Assembly: GCA_039796775.1 (NCBI GenBank)
Contig: JBDKJD010000001.1
Location: 88,399 to 152,398, forward strand
DNA: 64,000 nucleotides
Reading direction: 5' to 3'
Source of the DNA: Candidatus Parcubacteria bacterium
Lineage (GTDB): Bacteria > Patescibacteriota > Minisyncoccia > Phycocordibacterales > UBA5272
Of this stretch, positions 26,856-64,000 are shown in pieces. How positions within the stretch are numbered: position 1 is the first letter of the stretch; each line of letters starts with the position of its first letter. The position numbers and the translations under genes are program-made. A model generated the notes under the pieces. It did not search any database. It was given only the letters and a program-made list of their open reading frames with translations, and was not told where the DNA came from.

Positions 26856-26875
26856 ATCTGTGATACACTTTTTGT

Positions 26876-45068: not shown

Positions 45069-45083
45069 CTACTATAATCATAT

Positions 45084-46280
45084 ATGCCATCTATAGCTCT
45101 TTATTTAAAAACACATCAACCTTATCGAATAAAAGATTATCGGGTATTCGACATAGGCAAAGATCATCATTATTTCAACGCGCCTCACGGGCACAGAACC
45201 AACAATGAAGATGTGCTCAAAAAAATCTGCGAAAAATCTTATCTACCAACTAACGCAGTTCTCTTAGAATTACTCGAGCGTTACCCTGATTTCAAATTAA
45301 ACATATCCCTTTCTGGCACACTCTTGGAACAATTAGAAGAACACTCCCCTGAGACTTTAAAAACATTTCAAGATCTCATCAAAACAGGGCGGGTAGAAAT
45401 ATTAGGTGAAACATATTATCACTCTCTTTCTTTTTATTATTCTTTGACTGAATTCGAGGCGCAAGTTGAGATGCACAAAAAAATAATTAAGAGGCTTTTT
45501 AATGTCACGCCAAAAGTATTCTCAAATACAGAGCTCGCATATAGAGACGACTTAGCCGCATGGGCAGAAAAAGCAAAATATAAAGGAATCATAGCCGAAG
45601 GATGGGATCCGGTACTTGGATGGAGATCTCCTAATTTTGTTTATGCTCCACCTAATACCAAGAAAATAAAATTACTCCTTAAGAACTATCGACTGTCGGA
45701 CGATATAGCATTTCGATTTAGCAATAAAGGGTGGAGTGGGTGGCCACTCACAACAGAAAAGTTCGCTTCTTGGGTCAATCAAACACATGGCAATGCAGAG
45801 ACAATTAATCTCTTCATGGACTATGAAACATTTGGAGAACATCAATGGGCAGATACTGGTATTTTTGATTTCTTAAAACATCTTCCACGTGAATTATATA
45901 AACACAAAGACAACAGCTTCCTGACAGTGAGTGAGACATGCGAACGATATGAAGCAAGAGACGTGGTCTCTATGCCCAACATTGTCACCTGGGCAGATAC
46001 AGAGCGAGACTTGTCAGCGTGGACCGGGAATACAATGCAACAATCTTCTTTGCATGAGCTTTATAGAATAGAAGAAAAGATACGCGACACCAAAGACAAG
46101 AAACTCATCGATGATTGGCGCAAGTTACAAACATCTGATCATGTGTATTACATGTGTACCAAATGGTTCTCAGACGGTGATGTGCACAAATATTTCTCTC
46201 CATATGAATCCCCATATGAAGCATATATAGCATTCACAAATGCTCTCACAGACCTTAAACTTAGAGCAGGTATACTCTAA
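45084..46280 (+). CDS. glycoside hydrolase family 57-like (alpha-glucan active)
   Basis: N-terminal LKTHQPYR (GH57 HQP block). Size and gene context fit. Family call is motif-level. Confidence 0.55.
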   Translation: MPSIALYLKTHQPYRIKDYRVFDIGKDHHYFNAPHGHRTNNEDVLKKICEKSYLPTNAVLLELLERYPDFKLNISLSGTLLEQLEEHSPETLKTFQDLIKTGRVEILGETYYHSLSFYYSLTEFEAQVEMHKKIIKRLFNVTPKVFSNTELAYRDDLAAWAEKAKYKGIIAEGWDPVLGWRSPNFVYAPPNTKKIKLLLKNYRLSDDIAFRFSNKGWSGWPLTTEKFASWVNQTHGNAETINLFMDYETFGEHQWADTGIFDFLKHLPRELYKHKDNSFLTVSETCERYEARDVVSMPNIVTWADTERDLSAWTGNTMQQSSLHELYRIEEKIRDTKDKKLIDDWRKLQTSDHVYYMCTKWFSDGDVHKYFSPYESPYEAYIAFTNALTDLKLRAGIL

Positions 46281-46286
46281 TCTCTT

Positions 46287-48242: not shown

Positions 48243-48250
48243 TATCTATT

Positions 48251-49216
48251 ATGAACATCGATCAATTATTACAACCCTTACGATCATTCAAAGATCAATT
48301 CTTGTATAACCCTACATTAGTTGGGACATTACCTAATACCTATGACGGTGTGATTGTATGCGGGATGGGAGGATCTCTTATCGCAGCTAGGATGACGAAT
48401 CTCCTTTTCCCGGAACTCCCTATTTCATTTCATAATTCATATGGAATACCTAAAAAGACAGAATATGAGAACCCACTCTTTATACTCTCTTCATTTTCTG
48501 GAAACACAGAAGAAATTATCGATACCTACACCCATCTCAAGAAACATTCTCTTCCTTGTGCCATTATCAGTTGTGGAGGGAAGCTGCTTGAATTAGCAAA
48601 GATTGATACTATCCCTTATATAGAACTACCAAAAGATACTCATCTGGAACCTCGCTTTTCTTTGGGGTATCAGATGATTTCTCTCTTATCTATACTTGAA
48701 CAACAATCACTTATCGAGAGATTAAGAGACAGTGTTTCCAAAATCAATACCCCAGAATGTGAGCAAATAGCCGAAACTTTAGTAGATACTTTCAAAGACA
48801 GCTTCCTTGTATTCTATTCAAGCGAGAAATTATCTCCCCTTTCGTATACAATCAAAGCAGCATTAAATGAAGGAGCCAAGATTCCTGCTTTTATCAATAT
48901 TCTTCCGGAGGCTAATCACAATGAATTACAGTCATTTATTATGAATGAATCGCAGTCATATAATGCTTTATTTGGTTTCTTCTTTTTGTCATCACCGTTT
49001 GACCATGAACGAATAACAAAGAGGGTTGATACAATGAAAGCCTTGTATGAAGAAAAGTCTTTCATATGTGAGACATTTATTGTTGATGAGACAAAGATCG
49101 AACAAGTACTCTCTATGCTCTATATCGGATACGCTTACGCAACACTCTTAGCACATAAGCGAAACGTTGATCCTTATCAAACGCCGTTTATTAAAGCATT
49201 CAAAGAATCACTTTAA
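48251..49216 (+). CDS. bifunctional phosphoglucose/phosphomannose isomerase (SIS domain, archaeal-type)
   Basis: GVIVCGMGGSLIAARM SIS motif. About 320 aa, typical of the PGI/PMI family. Confidence 0.7.
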   Translation: MNIDQLLQPLRSFKDQFLYNPTLVGTLPNTYDGVIVCGMGGSLIAARMTNLLFPELPISFHNSYGIPKKTEYENPLFILSSFSGNTEEIIDTYTHLKKHSLPCAIISCGGKLLELAKIDTIPYIELPKDTHLEPRFSLGYQMISLLSILEQQSLIERLRDSVSKINTPECEQIAETLVDTFKDSFLVFYSSEKLSPLSYTIKAALNEGAKIPAFINILPEANHNELQSFIMNESQSYNALFGFFFLSSPFDHERITKRVDTMKALYEEKSFICETFIVDETKIEQVLSMLYIGYAYATLLAHKRNVDPYQTPFIKAFKESL

Positions 49217-49231
49217 TAGTATACTTATTAT

Positions 49232-50032
49232 ATGTTCATACTCATTGATGTTGGGGGTACAAAAACAAGAATAGGTGTAGGAAGAAATGAAGATACCATT
49301 GCTCCACCTGTAGTATTCTCTACTCATAAACAATTTGACACATGGTTGGCGGAAGTACAGACCGTTATGAAAAATCTTTGTAACGACCCTTCTTTAAGAG
49401 GTGTCATCATAGGAATACCGGGCACCTTCACAAAAGATGGGGTGATTATCAAAACACCCAACCTCCCTCTCTGGCAAGGTGTTCCGATACGGCATCATCT
49501 AGAAAAATTATGCAGGTGTGAAATCCATCTCTATAATGACACAGCTCTTGTCGGATTAGGAGAAGCTGTATACGGCGCTGGCAAAGGTCACTCAATAGTC
49601 AGTTATCTCACTATATCAACTGGGGTAAATGGCGTACGCATAGTAGATGGTGCGATTGATAGAAATACTTTTGGATTCGAAATTGGACATTCAATTATTG
49701 ATATAGAACACGATAGAGATGTTGAGTCTCTCATAAGCGGCGGATCACTCGAAAGAGAGTTCGGCAAACCGTCGCATGAAGTACATGATGTAATGTTGTG
49801 GGAGAAGATAAGCAGACGCGCCGGAATATTTGGTGCCAATACCGCTATGTATTGGTCACCGTCTATGATTATCTATGGAGGACCGGTTATGAATGATCTT
49901 CATTTAGAAATAATAGAAAAGGAGGCGAAACGCCACCTCACCATGTTCACCGAGCAACCACTCTTTGTGAGAGGAACTCTTAAAGATTATGGTGGACTTT
50001 ATGGAGCACTCGCGATAAGCAGGAAGATGTAG
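49232..50032 (+). CDS. ROK-family glucokinase
   Basis: N-terminal ILIDVGGTKTRIGV. ROK central region. Confidence 0.8.
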   Translation: MFILIDVGGTKTRIGVGRNEDTIAPPVVFSTHKQFDTWLAEVQTVMKNLCNDPSLRGVIIGIPGTFTKDGVIIKTPNLPLWQGVPIRHHLEKLCRCEIHLYNDTALVGLGEAVYGAGKGHSIVSYLTISTGVNGVRIVDGAIDRNTFGFEIGHSIIDIEHDRDVESLISGGSLEREFGKPSHEVHDVMLWEKISRRAGIFGANTAMYWSPSMIIYGGPVMNDLHLEIIEKEAKRHLTMFTEQPLFVRGTLKDYGGLYGALAISRKM

Positions 50033-50104
50033 TAGTCTAAAAGCAGTTGCTCATTATAATGAGTAATTCGATCTTTTTAATCAACCCTTTAAAGGAGGGT
50101 TGCC

Positions 50105-50365
50105 GTGAAATCAACAGCAAAGACCAAAGAACTTAAGAAAACCGTAAAAACTCTTTCGAGGCAAATAACTTCACTTCAAAGTGTTTTATTTGAAATTCTT
50201 TTTAATATGGAATACTTCAAAGAAAAGAATGTTCGTATAAAAAATAAAAAAGAGTATTTAAGGAACTTGACTCAGAAAGCAAACATGTTGGAAGAAATAT
50301 TAGCAACAAGAGAATTAGAACTTATCATCTTCCGTCACAGACTATTTAGAAAAAGAAACTCCTAG
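50105..50365 (+). CDS. hypothetical coiled-coil protein
   Basis: ORF with alternative (GTG) start; weak. Confidence 0.25.
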   Translation: MKSTAKTKELKKTVKTLSRQITSLQSVLFEILFNMEYFKEKNVRIKNKKEYLRNLTQKANMLEEILATRELELIIFRHRLFRKRNS

Positions 50366-50501
50366 AAACAATCTGAACATGTCTGAAGCCGGTTGGGCTA
50401 CTCAGCAAAAATACGCTGATATTCATCAGCGTATTTTCTTTTACCTTTTTATTCTGTCACACTAAACACTATGCTCTATATTCTGTACCCTACCCCTCTA
50501 T

Positions 50502-52169
50502 CTACCCCCTATCCACATGACTCCACGCGAAGTCTTTATCTCCATGAACTTTCTTGCCAGGGTTCAAGATATTTTCTGGATCAAAAATCTTTTTTGTCTT
50601 TTCAAAGAGGGAGATAATCTCTGGTGAATACATTTTCGGAAGATATGATGTTCTCAAAAGGCCATCATTATGCTCTCCTGACATAGAACCTTGATACTTG
50701 AATATGAGCGTATACACTTCATCCATGAGTGCGTGCAATGTCTCAACTATCCCTTCTTTATGAATATCAACGAGCGGAATAATGTGAAAGTTAGCATCCC
50801 CCATGTGTCCAGCGACGGTATAGATAAGGTCTTTGTATTTTTCTTGACTAAAAATAACTTCAAGTTCAGGGAGGAATTGTGGGAGGTCTTGTGGATGTAC
50901 AACAATGTCATCAATAGTGGGCGCTGTTCTGTACCCTTGCATGCGAGAGCGGAGGAGTGCGAAGCTCTCTCTTCTGAATGTCCAGTATTTTTTGGCTTGG
51001 GATGCGCTTGTTGTTTTTTTGATTGGAAGATTAAACTGCTTCATATCTTCATACGCTTTGGTTACTTTTTCATCAACCTCTTCTTCTGTATCACCAGTGA
51101 ATTCTGCCATAAGAATAATCTTAGGGACACCACCAGTTAACACCATCATGAATTCTGGCAAGAATTGAAGACCTAGAGTGATCATGTTGCCTCCCATGCG
51201 AACGGCGATATCTTTGAAGAATTTCATTGCTATCTTGAAGGTGTGATCATCGTATGACTCGAGTGTCTCTGGCTTATGTTCAAGCATTTTGACAATAATT
51301 TCTCCAAGATGGACGGTGGACGGTACGAACATAACAAGCATTCTCGAATGAGTCTTCGGTGCTACACCATTAAATGTTATAGAACTAACCCCGGCGAGCG
51401 TCCCCTGACTTCCTGCTATGAGGCGCGCGAGATTAAATACTTCGGTCTCTTTGTCATACACATTCCATAAGTAATATCCTGAGGAGTTTTTAGAAACTGA
51501 CGGCTTGGCGCTCATAATGGTGTCATAGTTCTCTGTGATAAGCGTATACATTTCTCTATGAATTCTTCCTCCTTCACCTTTTTCTTGCATTTTTTGTATC
51601 ATCTCTTCTTTGGTAAATACGCGAAGAAGGTCTCTCTCTCCATTAGCATAGACAACATCTAATGACTCAATATACTCTTCTGTCTTACCATAGGTGAGAG
51701 TCTTCTCTCCTCCTGAATTATTAGATACTATACCACCAAGCGCTGCCAATTCTCGAGAAGCTGGATAGCTCGGCATAAGCCACCCTTCTTGAAGCGTTGC
51801 TTTCTCAAAATCACGATAATATACTCCAGGCTCGGCTGTTCCATGTTCCTTAGTCACTTCTCCTATATGATTCATATATCGTGTCGTATCTATAACAATT
51901 GATGTTGAGAGTGGACCTCCTGTCATACAGGTTCCAGCTGCACGGAATGCGACTGATACATCAAATCCTTCTTTCTTCTTTTGATTAACGAGTGTTAAGA
52001 GCGATGAAATATCATGCGCATCTTTTGGATACACAACAAGTTCTGGAACAACATGAAATATACTTGTATCTTTAGATACCTTTTCTCTATCTTCTAAGAG
52101 AAGAGACCCGTCACCTTTGAAAGATACTGAGAGCTCTTTTGCGAATTCTTCGTAATTAATAGTACTCAT
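50502..52169 (-). CDS. FAD-linked oxidase (GlcD / D-lactate dehydrogenase family)
   Basis: PCMH-type FAD-binding N-terminal domain. C-terminal FDPENILNPGK signature. Start placed at the internal Met (MSTINYEEF). Confidence 0.8.
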   Translation of the reverse strand: MSTINYEEFAKELSVSFKGDGSLLLEDREKVSKDTSIFHVVPELVVYPKDAHDISSLLTLVNQKKKEGFDVSVAFRAAGTCMTGGPLSTSIVIDTTRYMNHIGEVTKEHGTAEPGVYYRDFEKATLQEGWLMPSYPASRELAALGGIVSNNSGGEKTLTYGKTEEYIESLDVVYANGERDLLRVFTKEEMIQKMQEKGEGGRIHREMYTLITENYDTIMSAKPSVSKNSSGYYLWNVYDKETEVFNLARLIAGSQGTLAGVSSITFNGVAPKTHSRMLVMFVPSTVHLGEIIVKMLEHKPETLESYDDHTFKIAMKFFKDIAVRMGGNMITLGLQFLPEFMMVLTGGVPKIILMAEFTGDTEEEVDEKVTKAYEDMKQFNLPIKKTTSASQAKKYWTFRRESFALLRSRMQGYRTAPTIDDIVVHPQDLPQFLPELEVIFSQEKYKDLIYTVAGHMGDANFHIIPLVDIHKEGIVETLHALMDEVYTLIFKYQGSMSGEHNDGLLRTSYLPKMYSPEIISLFEKTKKIFDPENILNPGKKVHGDKDFAWSHVDRG

Positions 52170-52233
52170 ATATAACGAGTGTAGCAAAACAAATATGATA
52201 ATCAAATAACACTCTCAAGATAATGAAGGGTGA

Positions 52234-53958
52234 TTATTTGATGGCTTCTTCTAACTTTTTCTCTATTTCTTGTTCTATTACCTCTAATCGCTTCTTAAAC
52301 TTTTTCATAATAGCTTGCTCTTCTTTGGTTAACTCTCTTTTCTTTTCTGCTTTGACCAAAACATCATGGAACTCTTCTACATCTCTACGAAGCGCAGAAA
52401 CATTCATTTCTAAGGTATTCTCTACCTCACGAAGCTTACGCTTAACGTTCCTTCTAAAAAGATTAAATTGAACAAATGCATACCAAAGCGTAGCAATGAC
52501 TGCGAGTAGTGCTATAACAATGATAAGTATCACAGAAAGCCAATTCATCACAAAAATTCCAAATCGAAGAAGTAACATTCTCTCCACTTCTATTACTTTG
52601 ATATTAGTGAAATCACTCACCGCGCCTTTGCTATCAAACACTCTTACCTTCATCTCATACACCCCAGAAGGAATCTTGTCTTTCCACGTGAGACTAAATA
52701 CTCCGACTTCATCTGTAGTTACATCTCTTATTAAGGCTTCGCCGTTTTTGTTGGTGAGTGTTACTTCTACTCTAGAATTAGGATATGAGGCTCCGACTAC
52801 TTTTAATTGAGAATCAAATTCTACTTTTCTGGAATATTCAGTAATGAGAGGTGGATTAATAGCTTGAATAGTGTAATCAAGTGACGCTGTTGAACTGTTC
52901 CCCGCTTGATCAGTAACTGTAATGATAACAGTATGCTTGCCTGGACTTTGTCTTGGGAGTCTATAAATACCTGAATCTTCTTTGGTCATCTCTATGGCTT
53001 GACCTCCATCAATAGAAAGAGAAATAGTCTTGATGCCAGAGAGTGTGTCACTTGAATTAATCACTAAACTTGGAGTGATATTAGTAGTCACTGATCCATC
53101 TGGGAACGTTGCCTGATCAATGGTTGGCGCTTGTGTATCTATTTGAAATTTATACGTAGATACAGCTCCCCATCCGTCAGCATTTTTGAACTGTACCTTC
53201 ATATAAAAGATTCCATCTTCATCCACTGTGAATGATCTACTAGCTACAGGCGGAGTGTAGACCCTTGAAGGGTTGTCTGTTTCTTTGTCTGAATATACCG
53301 TTCTCACAGAAGTAACATTTGAAGAGATTTTCCATTCAAAACTTGCATCTCTTCTTGAATACCAGGCGGTGCTATCTGGATGAGTTGGAGAGGTTATAAC
53401 AGGAAGAGAAAGTTCTACTGGTTCCTTCTCAACAACATTACCCTCTTCTCCTATATAAACAAGCGCAGAACCTGTTGTTTTTAGTACATCTGTCGCATTC
53501 CCGTCATTTAACAATACAGCGCCTTCTTTAATAACAATACTAACATTCCCTGCTTCTTTAGCTTTGAATGTGACTGTTATAACTTTGCCGGTAGCCTTGC
53601 TGTACCCTGGATTAAGAGCAACACCTTCTAGCGAGATTGTGCCTTTTTCATTAGAAAAAGTGGGCTCCTCTGCCCAAAGACTCATAAAAGACCCTGTCTT
53701 AGAAATAGAGATAACTTCAAGAGCATCCTTTGGAAATGTCGCATCAAGCGATACGGCATTAATAGCTTCTGTATTATTGGTAACATTAAAATCTACTTTG
53801 AATGTTCTCCCAACTGACGTAGAAACAGACGAAGGAGATACTATTAAGTTAGCAGCACTTACATATAACTGACTAGAGATACAAACAAATAGAGCGACCG
53901 CTATAAGAAGACTATTTTTTATTGAGGGGGTGGCGATATGCATGTATGATAATAACAA
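52234..53958 (-). CDS. surface protein with N-terminal cohesin-like domain, Ig-like repeats, C-terminal TM and coiled-coil tail
   Basis: Cohesin-like beta-sandwich pattern (TFKVDFNVTNN..AINAVSLDATFPKDALEVISI...KGTISLEGVAL...KVITVTFKAKEAGNVSIVI). TM helix VMNWLSVILIIVIALLAVIATLW. Confidence 0.55.
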   Translation of the reverse strand: MLLSYMHIATPSIKNSLLIAVALFVCISSQLYVSAANLIVSPSSVSTSVGRTFKVDFNVTNNTEAINAVSLDATFPKDALEVISISKTGSFMSLWAEEPTFSNEKGTISLEGVALNPGYSKATGKVITVTFKAKEAGNVSIVIKEGAVLLNDGNATDVLKTTGSALVYIGEEGNVVEKEPVELSLPVITSPTHPDSTAWYSRRDASFEWKISSNVTSVRTVYSDKETDNPSRVYTPPVASRSFTVDEDGIFYMKVQFKNADGWGAVSTYKFQIDTQAPTIDQATFPDGSVTTNITPSLVINSSDTLSGIKTISLSIDGGQAIEMTKEDSGIYRLPRQSPGKHTVIITVTDQAGNSSTASLDYTIQAINPPLITEYSRKVEFDSQLKVVGASYPNSRVEVTLTNKNGEALIRDVTTDEVGVFSLTWKDKIPSGVYEMKVRVFDSKGAVSDFTNIKVIEVERMLLLRFGIFVMNWLSVILIIVIALLAVIATLWYAFVQFNLFRRNVKRKLREVENTLEMNVSALRRDVEEFHDVLVKAEKKRELTKEEQAIMKKFKKRLEVIEQEIEKKLEEAIK

Positions 53959-54874
53959 CAGAAGCTAACACAAGTAACACACTCACTATGATACTATTAA
54001 GTATACTGAATAGACGCTGTTTTGTATTTAAGTTTTCAACAGTAGATATAGTTTTGATAGTATAATCACCACTCATATATTCAATATAGAGATGTATATA
54101 GTCTCCTCTTTCTTTGCTGATGACATACGGTAATGATATTTCTTGCCACAAAGAAGAAGTAACATTTGGTTCCGTGCTTTCATTTGACTGAATTAATTTA
54201 ACGAAACGAATAGGACTATAGAGTTTAGTATCCGTGAGGGTGATATACGTTTTTTGACTCTCCAGAGAACTGTCATCCATCAAAAGCAGCTCGATAGAAT
54301 TAATGTCTTTTCTATTGAGCGATAAGGCTGGTACTGTATTTTGATTAGCTACATTTGTGATAGTGAACATATGCTCTTTGGTTCTAGACGTGAGCACTGT
54401 AGCCTTCTCATCAAATGCATGAACTTGAACATTATCAAACAATATAACACCTTTGCCATTACTTTTAGGAGTAAGGAGTATAGTGAATAACTTTCCTTTA
54501 GTGAACGGATTTCCTGACCCAACATATGTATGTGACCACCCACCGATAAAAATACCTTCGAAAGATATAGTACTTCGTTTATTCAACGTATCTTTTTGTA
54601 GAGTGGGCTGAGTGACCCACAAAGGAACAATAGAGTCATAAAGTGATATTGTATAAAGAGACAACATTTCTTCTGGGAAAGAAATACTCCCTGAGACCCC
54701 ACTTACCACACTCCCCTCACTGTCCATATACACAGTAACTGGTACCACCTGAACTCCGTTTATTATTGTCGGTGCATTCACTTCAAAAGACACAGCGTAT
54801 ACACCATGCCATGTGCTTATTACTATACCTATACTAAAGAGTAATTTTTTGTACATAGTTATCCGGTCCAACAA
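53912..54874 (-). CDS. surface protein with cohesin-like domain and C-terminal TM anchor
   Basis: VQVVPVTVYMDSEGSVVSGVSGSISFPEEMLSLYTI...GKLFTILLTPKSNGKGVILF matches the cohesin pattern. C-terminal TM. Confidence 0.55.
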   Translation of the reverse strand: MLDRITMYKKLLFSIGIVISTWHGVYAVSFEVNAPTIINGVQVVPVTVYMDSEGSVVSGVSGSISFPEEMLSLYTISLYDSIVPLWVTQPTLQKDTLNKRSTISFEGIFIGGWSHTYVGSGNPFTKGKLFTILLTPKSNGKGVILFDNVQVHAFDEKATVLTSRTKEHMFTITNVANQNTVPALSLNRKDINSIELLLMDDSSLESQKTYITLTDTKLYSPIRFVKLIQSNESTEPNVTSSLWQEISLPYVISKERGDYIHLYIEYMSGDYTIKTISTVENLNTKQRLFSILNSIIVSVLLVLASVVIIIHAYRHPLNKK

Positions 54875-55824
54875 TAAGCCAAGATACTTAAATCAGTCAA
54901 ATTAATAGCTCCATCATTACTTAGATCAACTTCTTTGGGAAAAGAATTTCTCTTATACCAAAATGCCATAATACTAAAATCAAAAATGTTAACCCTGTTA
55001 TCGTTATTCAAATCGCAGTGCTTTCTAAAACCAAATAAGAGAGAATTATTGGTTCTTGTTACATTTTTGTCCCCTATAATAAACCCAATTGGAGAAGAGA
55101 ATCCGGACGTCGCTTGTGTGATGATTGACTTAGCCTTAACAACATACTCTCCATATACGAGAATACTACTTGGTAATGAATATTTCCACATACCCTTATT
55201 GTCTGCTTTGGTTTTGATAATATATTCTTCGTCATCGCTATCTTTTTTGAAGAACATAACACGTATATCAGCATGCGGTGTCGCTTCTCCAAAAAAAAGA
55301 ATACTTTCTCCCATCTTCACCTCTATCTTGTCAGATGTAATAGTAGGAGGAATCAAAATACCTTCAACTAATGTCATCACCCCCTCTTGTATAAAGATAC
55401 TAAACGATAAGAGAACTGAGAATCTTCCCGACGTGTCTACCGCTTGAACACCAAAACTATATACACCCTGACTGAGTGTTGGTGATGATATTTCAAATGA
55501 GCCATCACCATTTGCTCTCACTTCGTTAACTACGAGACCGTTACGAAGAAGTCTTACTTTTGACTCACCGTATGCCACACCCCTAAAAAGAGCAACATTA
55601 ACGAACGAGCTCGTATTGATCGGACCTGGGTTAATCGGTGGAGTATCAGGATATACAAGTGGTGGGGTTGGTACTACGGCAGTAATAGTTACACCTTCAT
55701 AAAGAGGATTCTGCGCTTGACCAAAAACGGTAACAAAAGGGAACGTGTTAGAGAAAAGTACTGTTACAAGTGTAATCAGCCCGACTATTTTCCGGATGCT
55801 TTTTGAGCTTGTTTGATGATCCAT
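54859..55824 (-). CDS. secreted protein with C-terminal type-I dockerin domain
   Basis: Two about 22-residue Ca-binding dockerin repeats, DLNNDNRVNIFDFSIM and DLSNDGAINLTDLSIL, at the extreme C-terminus. N-terminal signal anchor and Ig-like middle. Confidence 0.7.
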   Translation of the reverse strand: MDHQTSSKSIRKIVGLITLVTVLFSNTFPFVTVFGQAQNPLYEGVTITAVVPTPPLVYPDTPPINPGPINTSSFVNVALFRGVAYGESKVRLLRNGLVVNEVRANGDGSFEISSPTLSQGVYSFGVQAVDTSGRFSVLLSFSIFIQEGVMTLVEGILIPPTITSDKIEVKMGESILFFGEATPHADIRVMFFKKDSDDEEYIIKTKADNKGMWKYSLPSSILVYGEYVVKAKSIITQATSGFSSPIGFIIGDKNVTRTNNSLLFGFRKHCDLNNDNRVNIFDFSIMAFWYKRNSFPKEVDLSNDGAINLTDLSILAYCWTG

Positions 55825-56753
55825 TGATTATATTTCTTAAGCGCTAGAGTGAGTGCAAGTATCACAACAAGCAAAGAAACAAGGACAACAACAAGAAGCT
55901 GCCAAGGGAACATGAAGTAGGTAATAGATGATTCTGACTTACCTTCATTACCAAAGGAAAGTGAAAGTGTCGCTGTATACATACCAAGAGCAAAGTTATT
56001 CATTTGATAGGTAACATGTTCAAAGAATGGTGCAGAGGCAGCTGGTGCTTCATATGATCCTAGACGAGCTTCGAACTTTCGTGTGCTTCCTGGTAATACA
56101 TTTCCCTCTGTTTTGTTGGCGTTGATTTTTGTAACTTCGAATCCAAGCGTATTAGTAATAACAATATCACCTAATGGCTTTACTCTGTCATTACCACTAT
56201 TAGTAAAACGGTATTCAAAATCAACTGGAAGTGAGCTAAGTGTCTTTGTGTCACCTTTTATGGTGAATGACGATACACCCCCCTCTTCTTTTACATCACC
56301 TGTAACCTTGAGTAAAATAAGCATCCCGACTTTAGCACCTACAGATACCTGACTGCTGTCAGCAGACGGAGGAACAGTTGAGAGGAATATCGCCGCGAAA
56401 TGTCCCCCTGACTGAGCATCTGCTGGGACACTGATTGTATACGGGAGCGAAACTCTTTCACCTGGTTTAATAGTCACCTTATCAGTAACAGTTACCCATG
56501 TAGGAAGACCTTCTGTTGCTTTTGTGAAATTAGGAGTACCTGATTCACCTTGAGAGTCAAAAGCTTCTACTGAAGTATAAAATGTTTGTTCAGTATCTTG
56601 ATCATTAATAATAAGGAAGGTTTTTGAAATAGCCTCTCCTTTGTCAGCGGTTAATTCTTCACGCGCAGGCGAAATAGTAAGAGCGTTCAGAACGAGTGCA
56701 GGTGCCAGAAACAGTGAGATAATGGCGAAGAATTTTTTGGTAAATGATTTCAT
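55785..56753 (-). CDS. DUF916/DUF3324-like cell-surface protein with C-terminal TM anchor (CscA-like)
   Basis: Signal peptide, two beta-rich domains, C-terminal FPWQLLVVVLVSLLVVILALTLALKK anchor. Matches the CscA-type anchor architecture of WxL/Csc loci. Confidence 0.5.
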   Translation of the reverse strand: MKSFTKKFFAIISLFLAPALVLNALTISPAREELTADKGEAISKTFLIINDQDTEQTFYTSVEAFDSQGESGTPNFTKATEGLPTWVTVTDKVTIKPGERVSLPYTISVPADAQSGGHFAAIFLSTVPPSADSSQVSVGAKVGMLILLKVTGDVKEEGGVSSFTIKGDTKTLSSLPVDFEYRFTNSGNDRVKPLGDIVITNTLGFEVTKINANKTEGNVLPGSTRKFEARLGSYEAPAASAPFFEHVTYQMNNFALGMYTATLSLSFGNEGKSESSITYFMFPWQLLVVVLVSLLVVILALTLALKKYNQWIIKQAQKASGK

Positions 56754-56785
56754 AAAATAAAGAATAATAATAATGAGATGATTGT

Positions 56786-57877
56786 TTAGAAGTTGGCAGT
56801 TGCTACATAAGTTAGGTTAGCAGCATATATACCGGCTTCTGTTATTCCAGCAACGTTAGCCAAATAACGCAGTGACAATGTAGAAGTGTTGGTTACACCA
56901 GACCCTGTAGCAAACAAAGACGGTGTCGATGAAGAAGCATCGAATCCGTATGATGTTGAGAATCTGTACGTATCGTCGACAGTTACCCCTGTTCCACCTG
57001 ATTCAGTCGCTCGTATCGCGAACTGCTCAGTACCAGGAGTTGAAGAAGCTGCAACAGCACCTATTGCTGTGATTGTATTAAGAGAGTTTTGTTGTGATGT
57101 GAGCGTGTCACCTCTTACTGTTATAGCGAAACCAAAAGGTGCATTAGTGGAGATGGCGAGTGTGTGTGCAATAGTTTCTGCTGAATCTCCTGCTGTGTTT
57201 GTAGAGGAAGCGAACTTGGCACCACCTGAAGAGAGGTTACCAAAATAAATTGTTGTAGTAGAAATAGTGAATGTAAGAGATTGTTGAACAGTACCAGTCA
57301 TAGATACAGTATCGTCTGGAACAATATATGTACTTATTGAACCAGTATCTCCGAATGTTCCTGCAATAGTGATTTCGTATGTTCCTGGAGTTCCTGGATT
57401 AGTGATTTGAGAAACACCTGTTGCTCCAAATGTCGCATTAGATCCGATTTGGATTTGAATACAACGATTCGCTGGAATCACAGCAGTACCTGATGTGAGA
57501 GTGATAGTCTGAGAAGACTGTGAAGTTCCCCATGTTAGAGCTGATGCCGCGCCGGCTTGTAATTGAGCATCACTGAAACCAGAACACGTAGCTGAGGTTG
57601 ATGTAGCTAAGTCAAGGTTGTTGACGTTAAATGTCCCCATTGTATACCCAGCTGGAAACGTAATAGTTATTGTCTGCCCTGCTGTTAATCCGGTTGGAGT
57701 AACGAACTGGATAGTGTGATCTGATAATGTACTTTGTTGTACTGATGACTGTGTATTAGAAAGACTAGTCAAAGAAGCAGCGAGTACTAACTCTACGTGA
57801 ACAAAAGAAGCTCCAATCGCAAGAAGAGCAATAGTAACTAATGTTGTTAATTTTTTAAATAATGTAGTAAGTAACAT
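56786..57877 (-). CDS. secreted surface protein, paralog 1 (shared C-terminal ...YVATANF domain)
   Basis: Signal peptide. About 65-70% identical to the neighbouring 367-aa gene. C-terminal 170 aa shared with the 1094-aa protein. Confidence 0.6.
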   Translation of the reverse strand: MLLTTLFKKLTTLVTIALLAIGASFVHVELVLAASLTSLSNTQSSVQQSTLSDHTIQFVTPTGLTAGQTITITFPAGYTMGTFNVNNLDLATSTSATCSGFSDAQLQAGAASALTWGTSQSSQTITLTSGTAVIPANRCIQIQIGSNATFGATGVSQITNPGTPGTYEITIAGTFGDTGSISTYIVPDDTVSMTGTVQQSLTFTISTTTIYFGNLSSGGAKFASSTNTAGDSAETIAHTLAISTNAPFGFAITVRGDTLTSQQNSLNTITAIGAVAASSTPGTEQFAIRATESGGTGVTVDDTYRFSTSYGFDASSSTPSLFATGSGVTNTSTLSLRYLANVAGITEAGIYAANLTYVATANF

Positions 57878-58096
57878 AATAATCTCTTAATTCAATAAAA
57901 TCGACACAACAATTAAAGATATGTCTTACCTCTAAGTGTATCACTCCTTTGAATGAAATAGACACATTTGAGTCAAAAAATGTGGAAAAACTTTACTTAA
58001 AAGCTTTAATTGACACTTAACAAAACAGGATAGAAAAACTATATACTTAAAAAATCGGTTAAAAATGGTAGATACTTCGAACAATTCTATTAATAC

Positions 58097-59200
58097 TTAA
58101 TAGTTAGCAGTAGCAACATAAATAAGGCTTGCCACATATGTTCCCGCTTCAGTTAAACCAGAAATATTGGCTACATAACGTAAGGAATAGGTTGTTGTGT
58201 TGGTTGCTCCAGATCCTGTAGCTAAGACCGAAGGGGTTGTGGATGAGGCATCGAATCCATATGATGTAGTGAATATATAGGTTGGATCAATCGTTGCCCC
58301 TGTACCACCAGAGACTGTTGCTCGTATACCGAACTGTTCAGAGCCGAGTGTGGAAGAAGCAGCAGTGACCCCCATAGCTGTAATCGTATTAGCAGCCAAC
58401 TGCTGAGAAGTGAGCGTATCCCCACGTATGGTTATCGTATATCCAGAGGGAGCATTTGTGGCTATCCCAAGCGTGTGTGCGATGGTTTCTGTTGAATCTC
58501 CTGCGGTGTTTGTGGAAGAGGCGAACTTGTCATCACCTGCGGACAAGTTACCAAAATAAATTGTTGTCGTAGAGATGGTGAATGTAAGAGACTGTTGAAC
58601 GGTAGCACTAATGAGGACTGTATCATCTGTAATGATATTTTGAGTAATTGTCCCATTATCAGCCCCCACTATAATGGTAATAGCGTATGATCCTGGGGTG
58701 GTTGGATTAGTGATCTGAGTGACTCCTGTTGCTCCAAATGTCGCATTAGATCCTATTTCTATTTGAACACAACGATTCGCTGGAATCACAGCAGTACCTG
58801 AGGTGATATATACAGTCCCTGTTGCTTGAGTTACACCCCATGTCAAAGCTGACGGTGCGCCGGACTGTAATTGAGCATCACCAAACCCTGAACAGGTAGC
58901 TGACGTTGATGTAGCTAAATCAAAGTTAGCAACAGCAAATGTCCCTGTTGCATAGTTTGAAGGGAAGGTAATACTAATAGCCTGGCCAGCGGATAATCCA
59001 GTTGGTGTCACAAATTGTATTGTGTGATTAGATAATGTGTTGACCTTAAGAGAGCTTTGAGTGTCTGACAGGCTCGAGAGAGCGGCTGCGTGAGCGAGTT
59101 CAACGTGAACAATAGAAGCTCCGAGTGCGATAGAGAAGATGGTGCAGAAAGCAAAGAATTTATGTAGCTTAGAAGTTGTTGTATTGAAGACACTTATCAT
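58097..59200 (-). CDS. secreted surface protein, paralog 2 (shared C-terminal ...YVATANY domain)
   Basis: Tandem duplicate of 56786-57877, with long identical DNA stretches. Confidence 0.6.
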   Translation of the reverse strand: MISVFNTTTSKLHKFFAFCTIFSIALGASIVHVELAHAAALSSLSDTQSSLKVNTLSNHTIQFVTPTGLSAGQAISITFPSNYATGTFAVANFDLATSTSATCSGFGDAQLQSGAPSALTWGVTQATGTVYITSGTAVIPANRCVQIEIGSNATFGATGVTQITNPTTPGSYAITIIVGADNGTITQNIITDDTVLISATVQQSLTFTISTTTIYFGNLSAGDDKFASSTNTAGDSTETIAHTLGIATNAPSGYTITIRGDTLTSQQLAANTITAMGVTAASSTLGSEQFGIRATVSGGTGATIDPTYIFTTSYGFDASSTTPSVLATGSGATNTTTYSLRYVANISGLTEAGTYVASLIYVATANY

Positions 59201-59264
59201 GAATAGTAACAGTATACTCTAAGCGTATCATTAAATAACAATACTTTTAAGTGGAAAGAGGTTA

Positions 59265-62200
59265 TTAGAAGTTAGCGGTTGCAATATACACAAGAGCAGC
59301 GGAGTACTCATTCGCCTCTGTTGTTGGAGTAATATTCACAAGATAACGGACAGAGAATGTGGTAGTAGCATTATCCCCAACCCCTGTCGCTACGGTGCTT
59401 GGAGTTGAAGATGACGCATCGAAAGCGAATCCAGAAAGCGCGTAAGGAGATGACACGACACCACTTCCTCCACTCGCTGTTAATCGCACTCCGAACTGTT
59501 CAGTACCTGGGGTGGATACTGTGTTAACACCTCCTATTTGAGTAATAGTTGTAGATCCTGCAGTTAATGTATCCCCTTGTAGGGTTACTGTGTACCCGTT
59601 GATGGCATTTGTATTAACAATGAGAGAGTGGGCTTCTACTTCAACATCACTCCCTAAAAGAGATGTAGACGAAGCATATCTCGCTTGAGCGGACAACGCT
59701 GTCCCAAAATAAACAGAAGAAGTGGACACAGAGAAAGAAAATACTTGCGGACTAGAAGATGAGTTACTCGCCTCTTGCCATTCTAAGAGCATGCGATACC
59801 TCACGTTAGCATCACCTTGAGTCTGTTCATTATAAAGCGCCAACCCTTCCCCTTCTTTAAGGATAAGCTCGTCACCGTAATATATATCTGAATCAAAAAC
59901 TCCCGACGGTTGGTTAACTAACCCTGGTGTGGCTATTCCTAATACTCTAGAAGAGGTGGATTGCAAAAACCCAATTGTCGGACCTGTTGTACGTATATCG
60001 GCGGTCGAAGTCGAAGATCCTGAATGCTTGCGCGGGACACTCGTAGTTGCAACAACTGTTCCACCAGTAGCACTTCCTATTTTTCGTATACTGACTGGTT
60101 GATACACAGGAGCAACTACAGTACCACTACGATTAGCTCTGATACCTAGTTTTTTGACTATATAATTTTTACCTGAACCTATTGGATTAAAAAAAGAAGT
60201 ATAAGCATACCCAAGTGTCGTTGACTGATTGATTGGACCACTCGTGTACAAATATTCACTCAGCGTGGAAGGAGCGGAGCTCTCTTCATCCCATTCGAAT
60301 AATATTTTTACTCTAAAGTCAGCATCCCCGGCTGCTGTATCATGATACAATCCAACACCTTCTCCGGGTCGTAAGATTATAGGCTCTTTGTTATCAAATG
60401 TAATTTCTTTATATGCAGTTTGTGCGGCTGCAGCAGACGATACAGCACCTTGAGTTTGTACAGCTAATAATTTTGAGTCGGTGGTGCCTGAATATGTAGC
60501 AGTGACTCCCGTACGTCGTAGTTCGACAACACTGTTAACTGTACCTGTATGCTTTTTGGGAATACTGGTAGAAGCTATTTGAGTTCCGGCAGATGCTGCA
60601 CTTATGCGCCTTAATTGCATCGGGATATACACTGCCGTGTTCACACTATCGATTCTCATTTGCATTCTTTTTATGATTGCAGTCTTGCCTGACCCAGAGG
60701 GATTAAAAAAGGTTGCATAATTATATGAAGTTGCTGTACTACCGTTAATATCGCCTATATCTATAAGATATTCTCCTTGTGAAGACGGAGCTGAGCCTTC
60801 TTCATCCCATTCAACAAAAGTCCTCACATAATTATCCACATCACCAAGAGCAGCATTATAAAGAGCTACCCCCTCTCCTGGCTGAAGGATAATTTTTTCA
60901 TTATTACCTAACACCATCTCCCTTTGACCTATTGTCTGTCCAACAGCCCCAGGGGAAGTGACAGTCATGAAGTTAGCATCCGTAGTCCCGCTATAGGTAG
61001 CAGTGATCGCTGATGCACATGCGGCCCCACACCATCTCACTTCCATAACACTATCAGCTGTCCCTGTATGTTTTTTTGGGAGGGCCCCTGCTGCGATAAG
61101 CGTTCCACCTGAAGCTGTCGTAATTCTCCTGTAACTATACGAGACATATACTCCTGTTGAGTCAGCATCTACTTGAATTCCTAACTTTTTTATCACTATA
61201 TTTTTGCCTGATCCTACAGGATTAAAAAAAGAATAATGGGTGGTGTTAGCAGCAGCGGCAGCTTCTATACGATTCGATGCCCAAATATATTCTCCTTGCG
61301 AAGCTGGGGTATTCACCGCATCGACTTCTTCCCATTCTATAATCATGCGCACAAGTTGATCTAAATCCCCTGCTGTTTCTGAAATGAGAGCAACTCCTTG
61401 TCCAGCTTGAAGAATTAGCTTCTCGTCATTTTGATGAAAATTAATTTCTTTCCACCCGGTTGCCTGTGCTGTTGTACCACAAGGTGTAACACTTCCGATA
61501 CGAGCATCCACCCCTCCTGCTGTTGTTGTTGAGACAGTTACCCCAGTGCGCCGGAATTCCATAAAAGAATCAGCTCCACCTGTATGCTTTTTGGGGATAC
61601 TTGAGGTTGCGATAAGTGTTCCTCCAGTGGCAGATGATATTCTCTGAAGAATAATATTATTAGTATAGACAGCTGCAGCGTCGCATGTCTCCGTACCAAA
61701 CCAAATACGTTTAACTATCGCGGTCTTACCAGATGCAGAAGGGTTAAAAAAACTATTATAGGTATACCCAGGTGTTGTAGTGATTTCTACTCTTGGGAAT
61801 GCGAACAAGAATTCATTTTGGGGCGTGGGGGCATTCACCGTCTCTTCCCATTCATATAACACTCTAATTGATGTACCGACAGTCCCAGCTGCTTCTTGAT
61901 ATACAGCAATACCTTCTCCTGGTTGAAGAATAATCTTTTCATCTTGATCTCCAAAAGTAATATTTCGAGAACTATAATAAGCGCCCACAGCTCCAGAAAG
62001 AGGCTGTCCAAGAATACGAGAATCAGCAGTTCCAGAAAAAGTAACCGTTGGCCCAGAATGACGTATCTCAGCTATGGAGTTGCTTGAGCTCGCATTTTTT
62101 TGTGGAAAGTCTGCAGCTAAAATTTGAGTGCCCAGTGAGGAGGCCGAGATTCTACGTGCAGAGAGGTTGACATAGTTAGACGCGGTAGATGTAGAGACAG

Positions 62201-62549
62201 TATCAGAGCGTATAGCGAGCCTTTTTATTGCTACCGTCTTCCCTGATCCTGCTGGGTTAAAAAAAGCTGAATATACATAATTAGCTGATACAGATCCATT
62301 CACCGGACCAACATCAAGCATATATTCTTTCTCGTTTGGGTTAATCGCGGCTGAAGCTTTTGAAGGGGAAGAGAAGATGGTATCCACTACATTCTTATTG
62401 AGAGAAGCCAAATATATTTTGTCTACAATTTTCCCGTGTTTGTTTTTTTGGCTTACGGTTTGGAATAAACTAACAATAGCTTCTGGATTAAATCCAGACA
62501 AAAAAAGTTGCACAATCAAAAGCGATGTAAGGATTCTTCTAATCAGCAT
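59265..62549 (-). CDS. giant secreted surface protein: 5 tandem about 165-aa repeats plus shared C-terminal ...YIATANF domain
   Basis: Signal peptide. Repeats each contain FFNPxxSGK(T/N)..IK(R/K), PKKH(T/S)G, ILQPGEG.ALY and EWEE blocks. C-terminus is homologous to the two upstream paralogs. Confidence 0.65.
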   Translation of the reverse strand: MLIRRILTSLLIVQLFLSGFNPEAIVSLFQTVSQKNKHGKIVDKIYLASLNKNVVDTIFSSPSKASAAINPNEKEYMLDVGPVNGSVSANYVYSAFFNPAGSGKTVAIKRLAIRSDTVSTSTASNYVNLSARRISASSLGTQILAADFPQKNASSSNSIAEIRHSGPTVTFSGTADSRILGQPLSGAVGAYYSSRNITFGDQDEKIILQPGEGIAVYQEAAGTVGTSIRVLYEWEETVNAPTPQNEFLFAFPRVEITTTPGYTYNSFFNPSASGKTAIVKRIWFGTETCDAAAVYTNNIILQRISSATGGTLIATSSIPKKHTGGADSFMEFRRTGVTVSTTTAGGVDARIGSVTPCGTTAQATGWKEINFHQNDEKLILQAGQGVALISETAGDLDQLVRMIIEWEEVDAVNTPASQGEYIWASNRIEAAAAANTTHYSFFNPVGSGKNIVIKKLGIQVDADSTGVYVSYSYRRITTASGGTLIAAGALPKKHTGTADSVMEVRWCGAACASAITATYSGTTDANFMTVTSPGAVGQTIGQREMVLGNNEKIILQPGEGVALYNAALGDVDNYVRTFVEWDEEGSAPSSQGEYLIDIGDINGSTATSYNYATFFNPSGSGKTAIIKRMQMRIDSVNTAVYIPMQLRRISAASAGTQIASTSIPKKHTGTVNSVVELRRTGVTATYSGTTDSKLLAVQTQGAVSSAAAAQTAYKEITFDNKEPIILRPGEGVGLYHDTAAGDADFRVKILFEWDEESSAPSTLSEYLYTSGPINQSTTLGYAYTSFFNPIGSGKNYIVKKLGIRANRSGTVVAPVYQPVSIRKIGSATGGTVVATTSVPRKHSGSSTSTADIRTTGPTIGFLQSTSSRVLGIATPGLVNQPSGVFDSDIYYGDELILKEGEGLALYNEQTQGDANVRYRMLLEWQEASNSSSSPQVFSFSVSTSSVYFGTALSAQARYASSTSLLGSDVEVEAHSLIVNTNAINGYTVTLQGDTLTAGSTTITQIGGVNTVSTPGTEQFGVRLTASGGSGVVSSPYALSGFAFDASSSTPSTVATGVGDNATTTFSVRYLVNITPTTEANEYSAALVYIATANF

Positions 62550-63543
62550 ATGATACGTATGAATATACTTGTTCGCTTATTTCTTTGAACAATGCTTGTA
62601 TCTCTGTTTTATCGAGCTCACCTTTTTTGTTTTGAGCTATCATTACCGTGAGGAGATATGGTCTCCCTTTAGCATAGACAATCCCTGAGTCAGCCATCAC
62701 CTTCTCATCTATTCTAACACCCGTCTTGTGTACAAAAGGTACATCTTTTGGAATACCAAGAGACAAGAATTCATCTGGCTCTCTCTTTAAGATAGAGAGG
62801 AACGATTCTGAATGATACTGATCTAAGAATGTCGCATTATAGAGAGATCTAAAAAATATAGAGTATCGCTTCGCGGTGATACGATTATCAACATTATCAA
62901 AATCTTTTTTGTTGCGCTTTAACCCTTCTATAACATCATCCATACCAAGGTGGACAAACACATCTTCCAATTCCCCTCCTTCAATATTACGCAATAATAC
63001 GAAATGTGCTGTATTGTCAGAATTAATAAGAGATTCTTCAATAAATCGCTTAATTGAATGTGTCGTCCCTGTATCTTCTTTATACATGAATCCGAATTCT
63101 GTATCTTTGTCCTGGTCGAGGATAACAAGCTCATTATCTAACTTCCATTTTTTGTCTTGAACCTTTTTCATTGCAGCCATCGCCACTGGAATTTTTATAA
63201 GACTAGCTGGCCAAATTTTAACGTCTTTATGTGTCGAAATATTCGCCCCAGTTGGGAAGTATTCAAAATAAATCGAAATCGTATAGTCGGTTCTCTTTTC
63301 ATAGTCTTGCAACTTTTCTTTCAACTCTTGGAAGTCGACGATTAAGTTACGCTTATCCAAAATAGCAAGTGAAGGATTAAGAAGAGATTGAGAATCACTC
63401 ACAGCACTTCGTTCAGAAAAAATAAAATAAACGACAACTGATAACAATATCAAAGAAATAGTAATCGACACAGTCGCTATCAACCGATACGGCACAGCTC
63501 TTGTGCGATTATGCTCTTTGTTAAAATTATAATAAGGTTTCAT
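62539..63543 (-). CDS. class-A beta-lactamase / penicillin-binding-like serine hydrolase, membrane-anchored
   Basis: SxxK (PASLIKIP), SDN (LINSDNT) and KTG (VHKTGV) in the correct order and spacing. N-terminal TM. Stop overlaps the start of the giant surface gene by 11 nt. Confidence 0.7.
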   Translation of the reverse strand: MKPYYNFNKEHNRTRAVPYRLIATVSITISLILLSVVVYFIFSERSAVSDSQSLLNPSLAILDKRNLIVDFQELKEKLQDYEKRTDYTISIYFEYFPTGANISTHKDVKIWPASLIKIPVAMAAMKKVQDKKWKLDNELVILDQDKDTEFGFMYKEDTGTTHSIKRFIEESLINSDNTAHFVLLRNIEGGELEDVFVHLGMDDVIEGLKRNKKDFDNVDNRITAKRYSIFFRSLYNATFLDQYHSESFLSILKREPDEFLSLGIPKDVPFVHKTGVRIDEKVMADSGIVYAKGRPYLLTVMIAQNKKGELDKTEIQALFKEISEQVYSYVSYAD

Positions 63544-63546
63544 ATA

Positions 63547-63981
63547 TTACTCTTCCTCTTTGAGAGATTCAGTAACTGGGAGACTAAGATTTCTGATTTC
63601 TTCTGTATCTAACACAGTGTCGAGTTCAAGTTTCTTTCTGAATAATTCTGAGAGACTGTTATTATCATCAGAAAACACTTCCCCTGTGTCATCTCTATAG
63701 AATACAAAATGATCTCCATTAATGATCACTTGATAACTGAGTCCGTCAACGGTGAACTTTGGCCGCTCTCCCAAACTACTATCGAATGCATTAATTGTAA
63801 CAGTGCTAAATGATTTTGAAATAATGTTATACACGAAAAGTGTTTGTTTGTCTTCGCTTACCCACATCACAAACGAATCTTTCATACCGATAGCCATATC
63901 CTTGGCAACAGATACTTTAGTAGAAGAGGCTGTGCCTTCTATTTTGTGTTTCGTGTTATTTTCCAAATCATAAATCCACAA
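63547..63981 (-). CDS. hypothetical protein (may extend beyond window end)
   Basis: ORF only; upstream frame still open at 64000. Confidence 0.35.
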   Translation of the reverse strand: MWIYDLENNTKHKIEGTASSTKVSVAKDMAIGMKDSFVMWVSEDKQTLFVYNIISKSFSTVTINAFDSSLGERPKFTVDGLSYQVIINGDHFVFYRDDTGEVFSDDNNSLSELFRKKLELDTVLDTEEIRNLSLPVTESLKEEE

Positions 63982-64000
63982 TTCTTCGACTCCATCTTTT

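Follow-up and report, generated by a model that had tools for sequence, protein, structure and literature searches.

The locus described here lies in a 64-kb window of a Candidatus Parcubacteria contig (JBDKJD010000001.1; all coordinates are window positions) and is a cassette of genes, all on the minus strand, that probably encodes a pilus of the recently described Pam type. In the order of transcription it comprises a membrane-anchored serine hydrolase with a penicillin-binding/class-A beta-lactamase fold (62539-63543; 334 amino acids [aa]), a proposed tip subunit or adhesin of 1094 aa (59265-62549), two paralogous shaft pilin candidates of 367 aa (58097-59200) and 363 aa (56786-57877), a chaperone-like protein of 322 aa (55785-56753), a dockerin-bearing protein of 321 aa that we propose as the terminator or base subunit (54859-55824), and two proposed membrane docks of 320 aa (53912-54874) and 574 aa (52234-53958). 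An earlier reading of the bare sequence (the original prediction) had treated the first five of these open reading frames (ORFs) as a unit spanning 55785-63543. All five are present at exactly the positions it gave, and the array is real, but the unit continues: it takes in three further genes, the last ending at 52234, which overlap or adjoin the array and keep their synteny with it in relatives. A 219-nt noncoding gap (57878-58096) separates the two pilin paralogs, while the other array junctions are gaps of at most 65 nt or overlaps. Scanning for promoter and terminator consensus sequences gave counts not above those of shuffled sequences, with no convincing candidate in the 57878-58096 gap.

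The feature that ties the secreted proteins together is a C-terminal domain (CTD) of 165-170 aa, which is common to the 1094-, 367- and 363-aa proteins and in each lies at the extreme C-terminus (59268-59762, 58100-58609 and 56789-57298, respectively, on the minus strand). Residues 930-1094 of the largest protein are 46% identical to the 367-aa protein (E = 5e-39) and 51% identical to the 363-aa protein (E = 4e-40). Aligned from end to end, the two smaller proteins share 70% identity. The domain of about 170 aa with an ATAN[FY] end that had been noticed from the sequence is thus well founded, the three C-termini being LIYVATANY, LTYVATANF and LVYIATANF, and so is the pair of paralogs of about 365 aa. 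As also predicted, the three proteins have neither an LPXTG motif nor a C-terminal transmembrane (TM) segment. In fact, an LPxTG-like motif was found in none of the ten locus proteins, and a sortase pilus was rejected on this ground.

All three CTDs scored above the curated cutoff (55 bits) of the NCBIfam hidden Markov model (HMM) NF058581, CPR_Pam_pilin_C, which is annotated as "Pam pilus system pilin subunit." The scores were 69.6 bits for the 1094-aa protein, 69.2 bits for the 367-aa pilin and 62.8 bits for the 363-aa pilin, and the orthologous third protein in the related locus L001 reached 57.7 bits. Judged by these HMM scores, the CTDs belong to the Pam pilin family. A profile made from the three window CTDs retrieved 671 representative clusters at E <= 1e-3, with carrier proteins 92-2748 aa long; the match nearly always reaches the last residue, the CTDs end in F or Y, and the N-terminal passengers are very diverse. 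Identical or near-identical proteins were found in metagenome-assembled genomes (MAGs) labelled Candidatus Parcubacteria or Pacebacteria. Sequence searches of the PDB returned nothing meaningful, whether they started from single proteins or from pilin- and chaperone-family profiles.

In the 367-aa pilin, a signal peptide and an N-terminal beta-sandwich precede a candidate donor linker and the CTD, and its 363-aa paralog likewise carries a linker before the CTD. The candidate linker reads DDTVLISATVQQ in the former (58592-58627, minus strand) and DDTVSMTGTVQQ in the latter (57281-57316, minus strand). Pilins of relatives carry DDTVAVTATV in this interdomain segment, and the conserved form in the window pilins is DDTVxxSATV. 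In an AlphaFold2 (AF2) model of the 367-aa pilin, with a predicted local distance difference test (pLDDT) value of 85, two beta domains (residues 42-190 and 205-365) flank a linker in which residues 194-198 fall below pLDDT 50. This monomer model shows the two-domain pilin architecture of the Pam system, and a linker below pLDDT 50 in a monomer is what one would expect of a strand whose pairing partner lies in a different subunit.

The distribution of the linker motif among relatives follows gene position closely. A wide 7-mer pattern, [VIL]x[VILMA][STN][AG]x[VI], scored just upstream of the CTD in loci with at least two CTD genes, was present in 61 of the 66 CTD proteins that are not encoded by the first gene and in none of the 39 complete first-gene CTD proteins (247-1099 aa). 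A narrow pattern, [VIL]x[VILM][ST][AG]xV, was scored at a fixed site in homologue sets of 120 and occurred in 118 of the pilin homologues, 103 of the dockerin-protein homologues and 55 of the chaperone homologues; its background in the ORFs of the window is 0.24 per 1000 aa. The 7-mer was also related to size in a set of 148 diverse CTD proteins, being found in 29 of 45 proteins of 321-400 aa versus 2 of 49 proteins above 700 aa. The split between first and later genes fits an assembly in which donor-strand exchange would link a tip subunit with shaft pilins and a terminator. If so, the order of assembly can be read from sequence: a first gene without linker marks the proposed tip, the later genes with linker the proposed shaft, and the next gene, with a strand only, the proposed terminator.

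The 1094-aa protein belongs to the first-gene class. It carries a Ser-rich spacer before the CTD instead of the donor-linker motif, and its N-terminal part consists of a signal peptide and five repeats of about 172 aa (59775-62360, minus strand) that are 31-46% identical, in agreement with the giant repeat protein of the original prediction. A P-loop-like motif, FFNPxGSGK[TN], is invariant in each repeat (at residues 96, 267, 441, 614 and 786). The repeat has no Pfam or PDB relative; AAA_22 was discarded as a candidate, since its match stems from the GSGKT motif and lies below threshold. Orthologues in L075 and L076 are 64-72% identical to the window protein, and the repeat count of five is kept in both MAGs. 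At the equivalent position L074 has a CTD-only protein of 189 aa, and no CTD-only gene is present in the window.

Directly downstream of the pilin genes lies the gene for the 322-aa chaperone-like protein, in which a signal peptide is followed by two immunoglobulin (Ig)-like domains (56379-56684 and 55911-56330) and a TM helix (55827-55904). In the AF2 model (pLDDT 82) the two domains are beta-sandwiches, residues 126-141 form a disordered loop and the C-terminal TM helix is long; the loop and the conserved strand that comes after it, KVGMLILLKVTGDV, are encoded at 56292-56381 (minus strand). A TM-anchored PapD/FimC-like chaperone encoded in the operon is one of the marks of the Pam system, and the fold of the 322-aa protein is of this kind. 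Foldseek matched the model best, over both domains, to WxLIP, the anchor protein of the WxL surface systems of Firmicutes, with hits to 9i1y (E = 3e-11) and to 9i25, "WxLIP bound to long WxL" (E = 7.5e-11), and also to the chaperones CsuC, CfaA, Caf1M and DraB (E = 1e-10 to 1e-8), with FimC among the further chaperone-usher matches. The sequence of 9i1y is that of a bona fide DUF916/DUF3324 protein. An RbmA-like identity for 55785-56753 was rejected, as only one domain superposes on RbmA (104 residues; TM-score, 0.25-0.33) versus two for WxLIP and the chaperones. We observed in addition that a Kurthia WxLIP (L005:4244-5293) and the window gene 55785-56753 have the same weak secondary Pfam matches (fn3_5 and FixG_C) in the equivalent part of domain 1.

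The original prediction had called the 322-aa protein an anchor of the DUF916/DUF3324 type. Its signal peptide, its TM helix and its WxLIP-like fold speak for that description, which stops short at the family models: a Pfam scan of nine locus proteins at E <= 1 gave no WxLIP_PGBD/DUF916 (PF06030) or WxLIP_HBD/DUF3324 (PF11797) match, and none to WxL (PF13731), PapD or Cohesin either. PapD_N and PapD_C likewise had no Pfam match in the locus proteins. For a more sensitive comparison, 68 Firmicute WxL loci were recovered by means of a back-translated NQIDKxxxYFDLK pattern, their WxL and WxLIP genes were verified with Pfam, and families were compared with hhalign. With signal peptide and TM segment removed, the chaperone-like family matched 55 Firmicute WxLIPs with E = 1.2e-4, and a more diverse alignment of 62 sequences matched WxLIP with E = 2.1e-5. 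Separated by domain, domain 1 matched DUF916 with E = 4.3e-6 and domain 2 matched DUF3324 with E = 0.015. Reversed and unrelated beta-family controls gave 0.005-0.4 (reversed controls about 0.05). These profile comparisons lend modest but real support to a remote homology between the 322-aa family and WxLIP; the signal is clearest in domain 1 and does not amount to membership in the family.

The 321-aa protein that follows has no TM helix. Just after its signal peptide it carries the strand EGVTITAVVP (55669-55698, minus strand); beyond a Pro-rich spacer come two Ig-like domains and then a type I dockerin (54868-55014, minus strand), which scored 26.6 bits against the Pfam Dockerin_1 (PF00404) cutoff of 22.9 bits. 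Dockerin_1 exceeded its threshold in three orthologues (26.6, 25.6 and 25.9 bits). The strand motif is the one counted above in 103 of 120 dockerin-protein homologues, where it lies at residues 40-59. Both of the remaining proteins have a signal peptide and a cohesin-type N-terminal domain. The 320-aa protein ends with a C-terminal TM segment (53924-54019); the 574-aa protein contains Big_13 Ig domains (E = 2e-13) and, past its TM segment (52456-52581), a cytoplasmic tail that is charged and coiled-coil-like. Their cohesin assignment comes from a relative, L073:20186-20980, which passes Pfam Cohesin (PF00963; 34.1 bits versus a cutoff of 24.1 bits). To this protein the 574-aa protein is 37% identical (E = 2e-24) and the 320-aa protein 30% identical (E = 3e-8), and the latter is also similar to the N-terminal domain of the 574-aa protein. 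PDB sequence searches with the 574- and 320-aa proteins gave no cohesin match. A dockerin/cohesin-type array is also found at L073:18384-20980.

When relatives were retrieved by means of the chaperone-like protein, 80 metagenome loci were obtained, 59 of them with classifiable downstream genes. The gene order in these loci is nearly fixed: a variable CTD protein is followed by one to three pilin-size CTD proteins, the chaperone-like protein, the dockerin protein and one to three cohesin-type TM proteins. In 58 of the 59 loci the chaperone gene is followed immediately by the dockerin gene, and 52 of the 59 have cohesin-type genes downstream of the chaperone gene. No usher-like gene was detected in the cassette, be it in the window or in the 80 related loci.

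We consider it probable, though not certain, that this locus is a Pam-type pilus operon of a bacterium of the Candidate Phyla Radiation (CPR), or Patescibacteria. Pam pili became known in 2026 through a single cultured species of the CPR, Ca. Mycosynbacter amalyticus, and were described as usher-less donor-strand-exchange filaments resolved by cryo-electron microscopy (cryo-EM) (bioRxiv 10.64898/2026.03.03.709456). In their two-domain pilins, PamA and PamB, an interdomain strand completes the truncated Ig-like CTD of the neighbouring subunit, and the operon further encodes the TM-anchored PapD-like chaperones PamC and PamD, a linker-less single-domain tip, PamT, and an RbmA-like TM-anchored terminator, PamR (10.64898/2026.03.03.709456). 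The window locus resembles this system in its CPR host, in CTDs that pass the curated HMM, in two-domain pilins with an interdomain linker, in a TM-anchored two-Ig chaperone-like protein, in having neither usher nor sortase, and in combining a proposed acceptor-only tip subunit with a proposed terminator that lacks the domain and carries an N-terminal strand.

On this basis we propose the following course of assembly. All subunits would be exported by Sec, in keeping with the signal peptides seen in their sequences. By analogy with the published structures of PamA and PamB, each CTD would be an incomplete Ig-like fold with an open groove, which the two-Ig protein, whose fold is apparent from the AF2 model, may cap at the membrane by strand donation in the manner of PapD-like chaperones and WxLIP. 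The linker-less product of the 1094-aa first gene would then nucleate the filament and end up at its distal end as an adhesin displaying the five orphan repeats; because it has an acceptor domain and no donor linker, the distal tip is the only place that it could occupy. Each pilin of about 365 aa would fill the groove of the preceding subunit with its linker strand and thereby build the shaft. The dockerin protein would presumably fill the last groove with its N-terminal strand and end polymerization, since it has no acceptor domain by which growth could go on. Finally, its dockerin may bind the cohesin-type modules of the 320- and 574-aa TM proteins, a joint that would take over from the TM helix of PamR in holding the filament at the membrane.

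Several observations weigh against this assignment. The filament, the complex and the donor-strand contact are inferred here from gene content, linker-motif counts and monomer models, and the coordinates of PamA and PamB were not among the PDB matches of the locus proteins. The PamT equivalog model (NF058579) was scored at best with 27.6 and 32.9 bits against a cutoff of 240, and the PamR equivalog model (NF058578) matched only the N-terminus of the dockerin protein, with 13.5 bits (E = 0.024) against a cutoff of 300; because both fall so far below their cutoffs, the tip and terminator roles are assigned from architecture and not from orthology. The 322-aa protein matches no NCBIfam or Pfam family, and there is one chaperone gene here versus two, PamC and PamD, in the reference system. 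Neither the 574-aa nor the 320-aa protein has a Pfam Cohesin match of its own, so that their cohesin assignment is transitive.

The system itself is already known, if only very recently described, and the giant tip and the dockerin-cohesin base are differences from the published Pam model. The tip here is a protein of 1094 aa with five orphan repeats, versus the single-domain PamT, and a beta-lactamase-fold hydrolase is translationally coupled to its gene. Where PamR has a TM helix, the presumed terminator has a dockerin, and two cohesin-type TM proteins are encoded next to it. A glycogen-type sugar cluster, rather than ATP synthase genes, adjoins the cassette, and the source labels are Parcubacteria and Pacebacteria, whereas the preprint places its emphasis on Saccharimonadia and Microgenomatia (10.64898/2026.03.03.709456). 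It mentions neither a giant passenger-bearing tip, nor a dockerin-cohesin joint, nor WxL (10.64898/2026.03.03.709456), and a dockerin-cohesin joint at a pilus base appears in neither the Pam nor the WxL literature cited here.

The original prediction had read the array as a cell-surface complex (Csc)/WxL-like display locus. Understood in this way, the TM protein would be a permanent WxLIP-like anchor that holds the CTD proteins noncovalently at the wall or membrane, and no polymerization would take place. The resemblance is substantial in gene logic. WxL clusters of Firmicutes combine one TM two-Ig protein with small and large proteins that share one C-terminal domain (PMC10599100), as is the case here with one C-terminal beta domain; both systems are found in monoderms and have no usher; and it is WxLIP that gives the 322-aa protein its best two-domain structural match and its weak, above-control profile signal. 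AF2 work on WxLIP moreover predicts that a disordered loop becomes the strand that completes the WxL sandwich (PMC10599100), and the disordered loop of the 322-aa protein is colinear with it.

It is the shared domain that fails to fit. The original prediction had proposed that a Tyr-containing motif takes the place of the WxL signature and had suggested comparing the domain with the WxL profile (PF13731). Besides the lack of any Pfam WxL match, hhalign comparisons of the CTD with 68 verified small WxL proteins gave E = 0.36, 0.016 and 0.022 for three progressively more diverse alignments, and comparisons with large WxL gave E = 0.11-0.13, all within the control range of 0.005-0.4, whereas the positive control, large against small WxL, gave 1.5e-15. 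Small and large WxL queries matched no chain among the PDB sequences. Colinear pairings of CTD and WxL motifs (the FG strand, GYxI with GWxL and LTYV with LTWTL) were dropped as evidence, because hhalign never left the noise. In these comparisons the CTD is not a WxL domain, and it falls instead into the Pam pilin family, members of which have been seen as filaments by cryo-EM (10.64898/2026.03.03.709456). Nor is there an LPxTG-anchored, CscD-like gene, a partner that is frequent though not obligatory in WxL/Csc clusters. WxL systems are described as peptidoglycan-bound display rather than as filaments, and a dockerin-cohesin module is not part of their clusters as described. The 61/66 versus 0/39 split in the linker motif, together with the same strand on a downstream protein that has no CTD, is hard to explain without donation from subunit to subunit. 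What stands of the csc/WxL comparison is the common gene logic and the WxLIP-like TM protein, with no defining WxL or Csc sequence feature, and we regard plain WxL/Csc-type display as an unlikely description of this locus. It is highly improbable that we are dealing with secreted adhesins or S-layer-like proteins of unrelated origin that share only a sorting or anchoring tag with a terminal aromatic residue, analogous to the outer-membrane beta-signal. The near-constant C-terminal position of the domain, its final F or Y and its diverse passengers would suit a tag, but the shared region is a whole folded beta domain of 165-170 aa, on which ground a beta-signal proper was rejected. It is also a curated pilin domain whose genes are strictly syntenic with that of a chaperone-fold protein. 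CPR bacteria, moreover, have a monoderm envelope, and in the window we saw neither a Bam-like nor an usher-like gene.

The Pam-type pilus that we favor also differs in clear ways from other systems with which it shares parts. Unlike chaperone-usher pili (PapD/FimC, archaic Csu and CFA/I), it would work without outer membrane or usher and with a chaperone that is membrane anchored, and its pilins have two domains, with the donor strand internal rather than N-terminal. The base recalls cellulosome-type cohesin-dockerin pairs in that a type I dockerin sits in the protein after the chaperone and cohesin-type modules on adjacent membrane-anchored partners; here, however, no enzymes are attached, and the context is the proposed base of a pilus in a CPR bacterium.

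From the resemblance of the chaperone-like protein to WxLIP comes the further, tentative idea that Pam pili and WxL/Csc are two branches of one ancient usher-less monoderm system. Its common principle would be strand donation by a two-Ig chaperone anchored in the membrane (PamC/D or WxLIP), by which an incomplete C-terminal beta domain on small and large surface proteins is completed. We regard such shared ancestry as possible but less likely than not. If it were true, WxL proteins, which have been linked to virulence, may be strand-exchanged and possibly polymerizing subunits, not simple peptidoglycan binders, and the filament base in the present lineage would additionally have swapped a TM helix for a dockerin-cohesin joint. 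The structural link connects a CPR filament, in a way that is open to testing, with a surface system of enterococci and lactobacilli that is itself poorly understood.

Much of bacterial diversity falls within the CPR, whose members spend their lives attached to host cells, and to our knowledge the means by which they attach are largely unknown. The system described here is widespread: 671 representative clusters contain the domain, and 80 metagenome loci the cassette. The highly variable passengers at the tip position, in proteins of up to 2748 aa, are natural candidates for host-recognition adhesins.

The serine hydrolase at the upstream end of the array had been predicted as a membrane-anchored beta-lactamase/PBP-like protein whose gene overlaps the next start, and this holds in every part. 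It matches Pfam Beta-lactamase2 (E = 9e-35), has an N-terminal TM segment and retains the motifs SLIK114, SDN175 and KTG273, with no ExxLN omega-loop motif. Its gene overlaps that of the 1094-aa protein by 11 nt in the window and by 11 and 20 nt in L075 and L076. The hydrolase and five-repeat genes are conserved together in L075, L076, L077 and L084, and relatives at a greater distance have other genes in their place: BLASTP found no hydrolase in L001 or L003, and in L073 and L074 the genes called upstream of the CTD genes contain no Beta-lactamase2. Going by this distribution of genes, the hydrolase is a lineage-specific accessory outside the core cassette, confined to the sub-lineage with the five-repeat protein, and one might speculate that it serves local wall remodelling.

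Upstream of the hydrolase, a truncated ORF (63547-64000, minus strand) is the 3' end of a larger gene that runs past the window edge. Its product shares 47% identity with the C-termini of proteins of 788 and 856 aa that precede the beta-lactamase-like gene in L075 and L076; these 788-856-aa proteins have no Pfam match, and the gene travels with the beta-lactamase-like and five-repeat genes. On the other side of the pilus cassette, 43821-52205 holds the adjoining sugar/glycogen-type cluster, with GT4/GT5-like, GH57, GH15, PGI-type SIS, ROK kinase and flavin adenine dinucleotide (FAD)-linked oxidase genes, and the same order is found in L001, L003, L075 and L076. Farther away, and unrelated to the pilus locus, 25701-28027 (plus strand) encodes a matrixin-type (Peptidase_M10) protein of 383 aa beside a 384-aa protein with no Pfam match.

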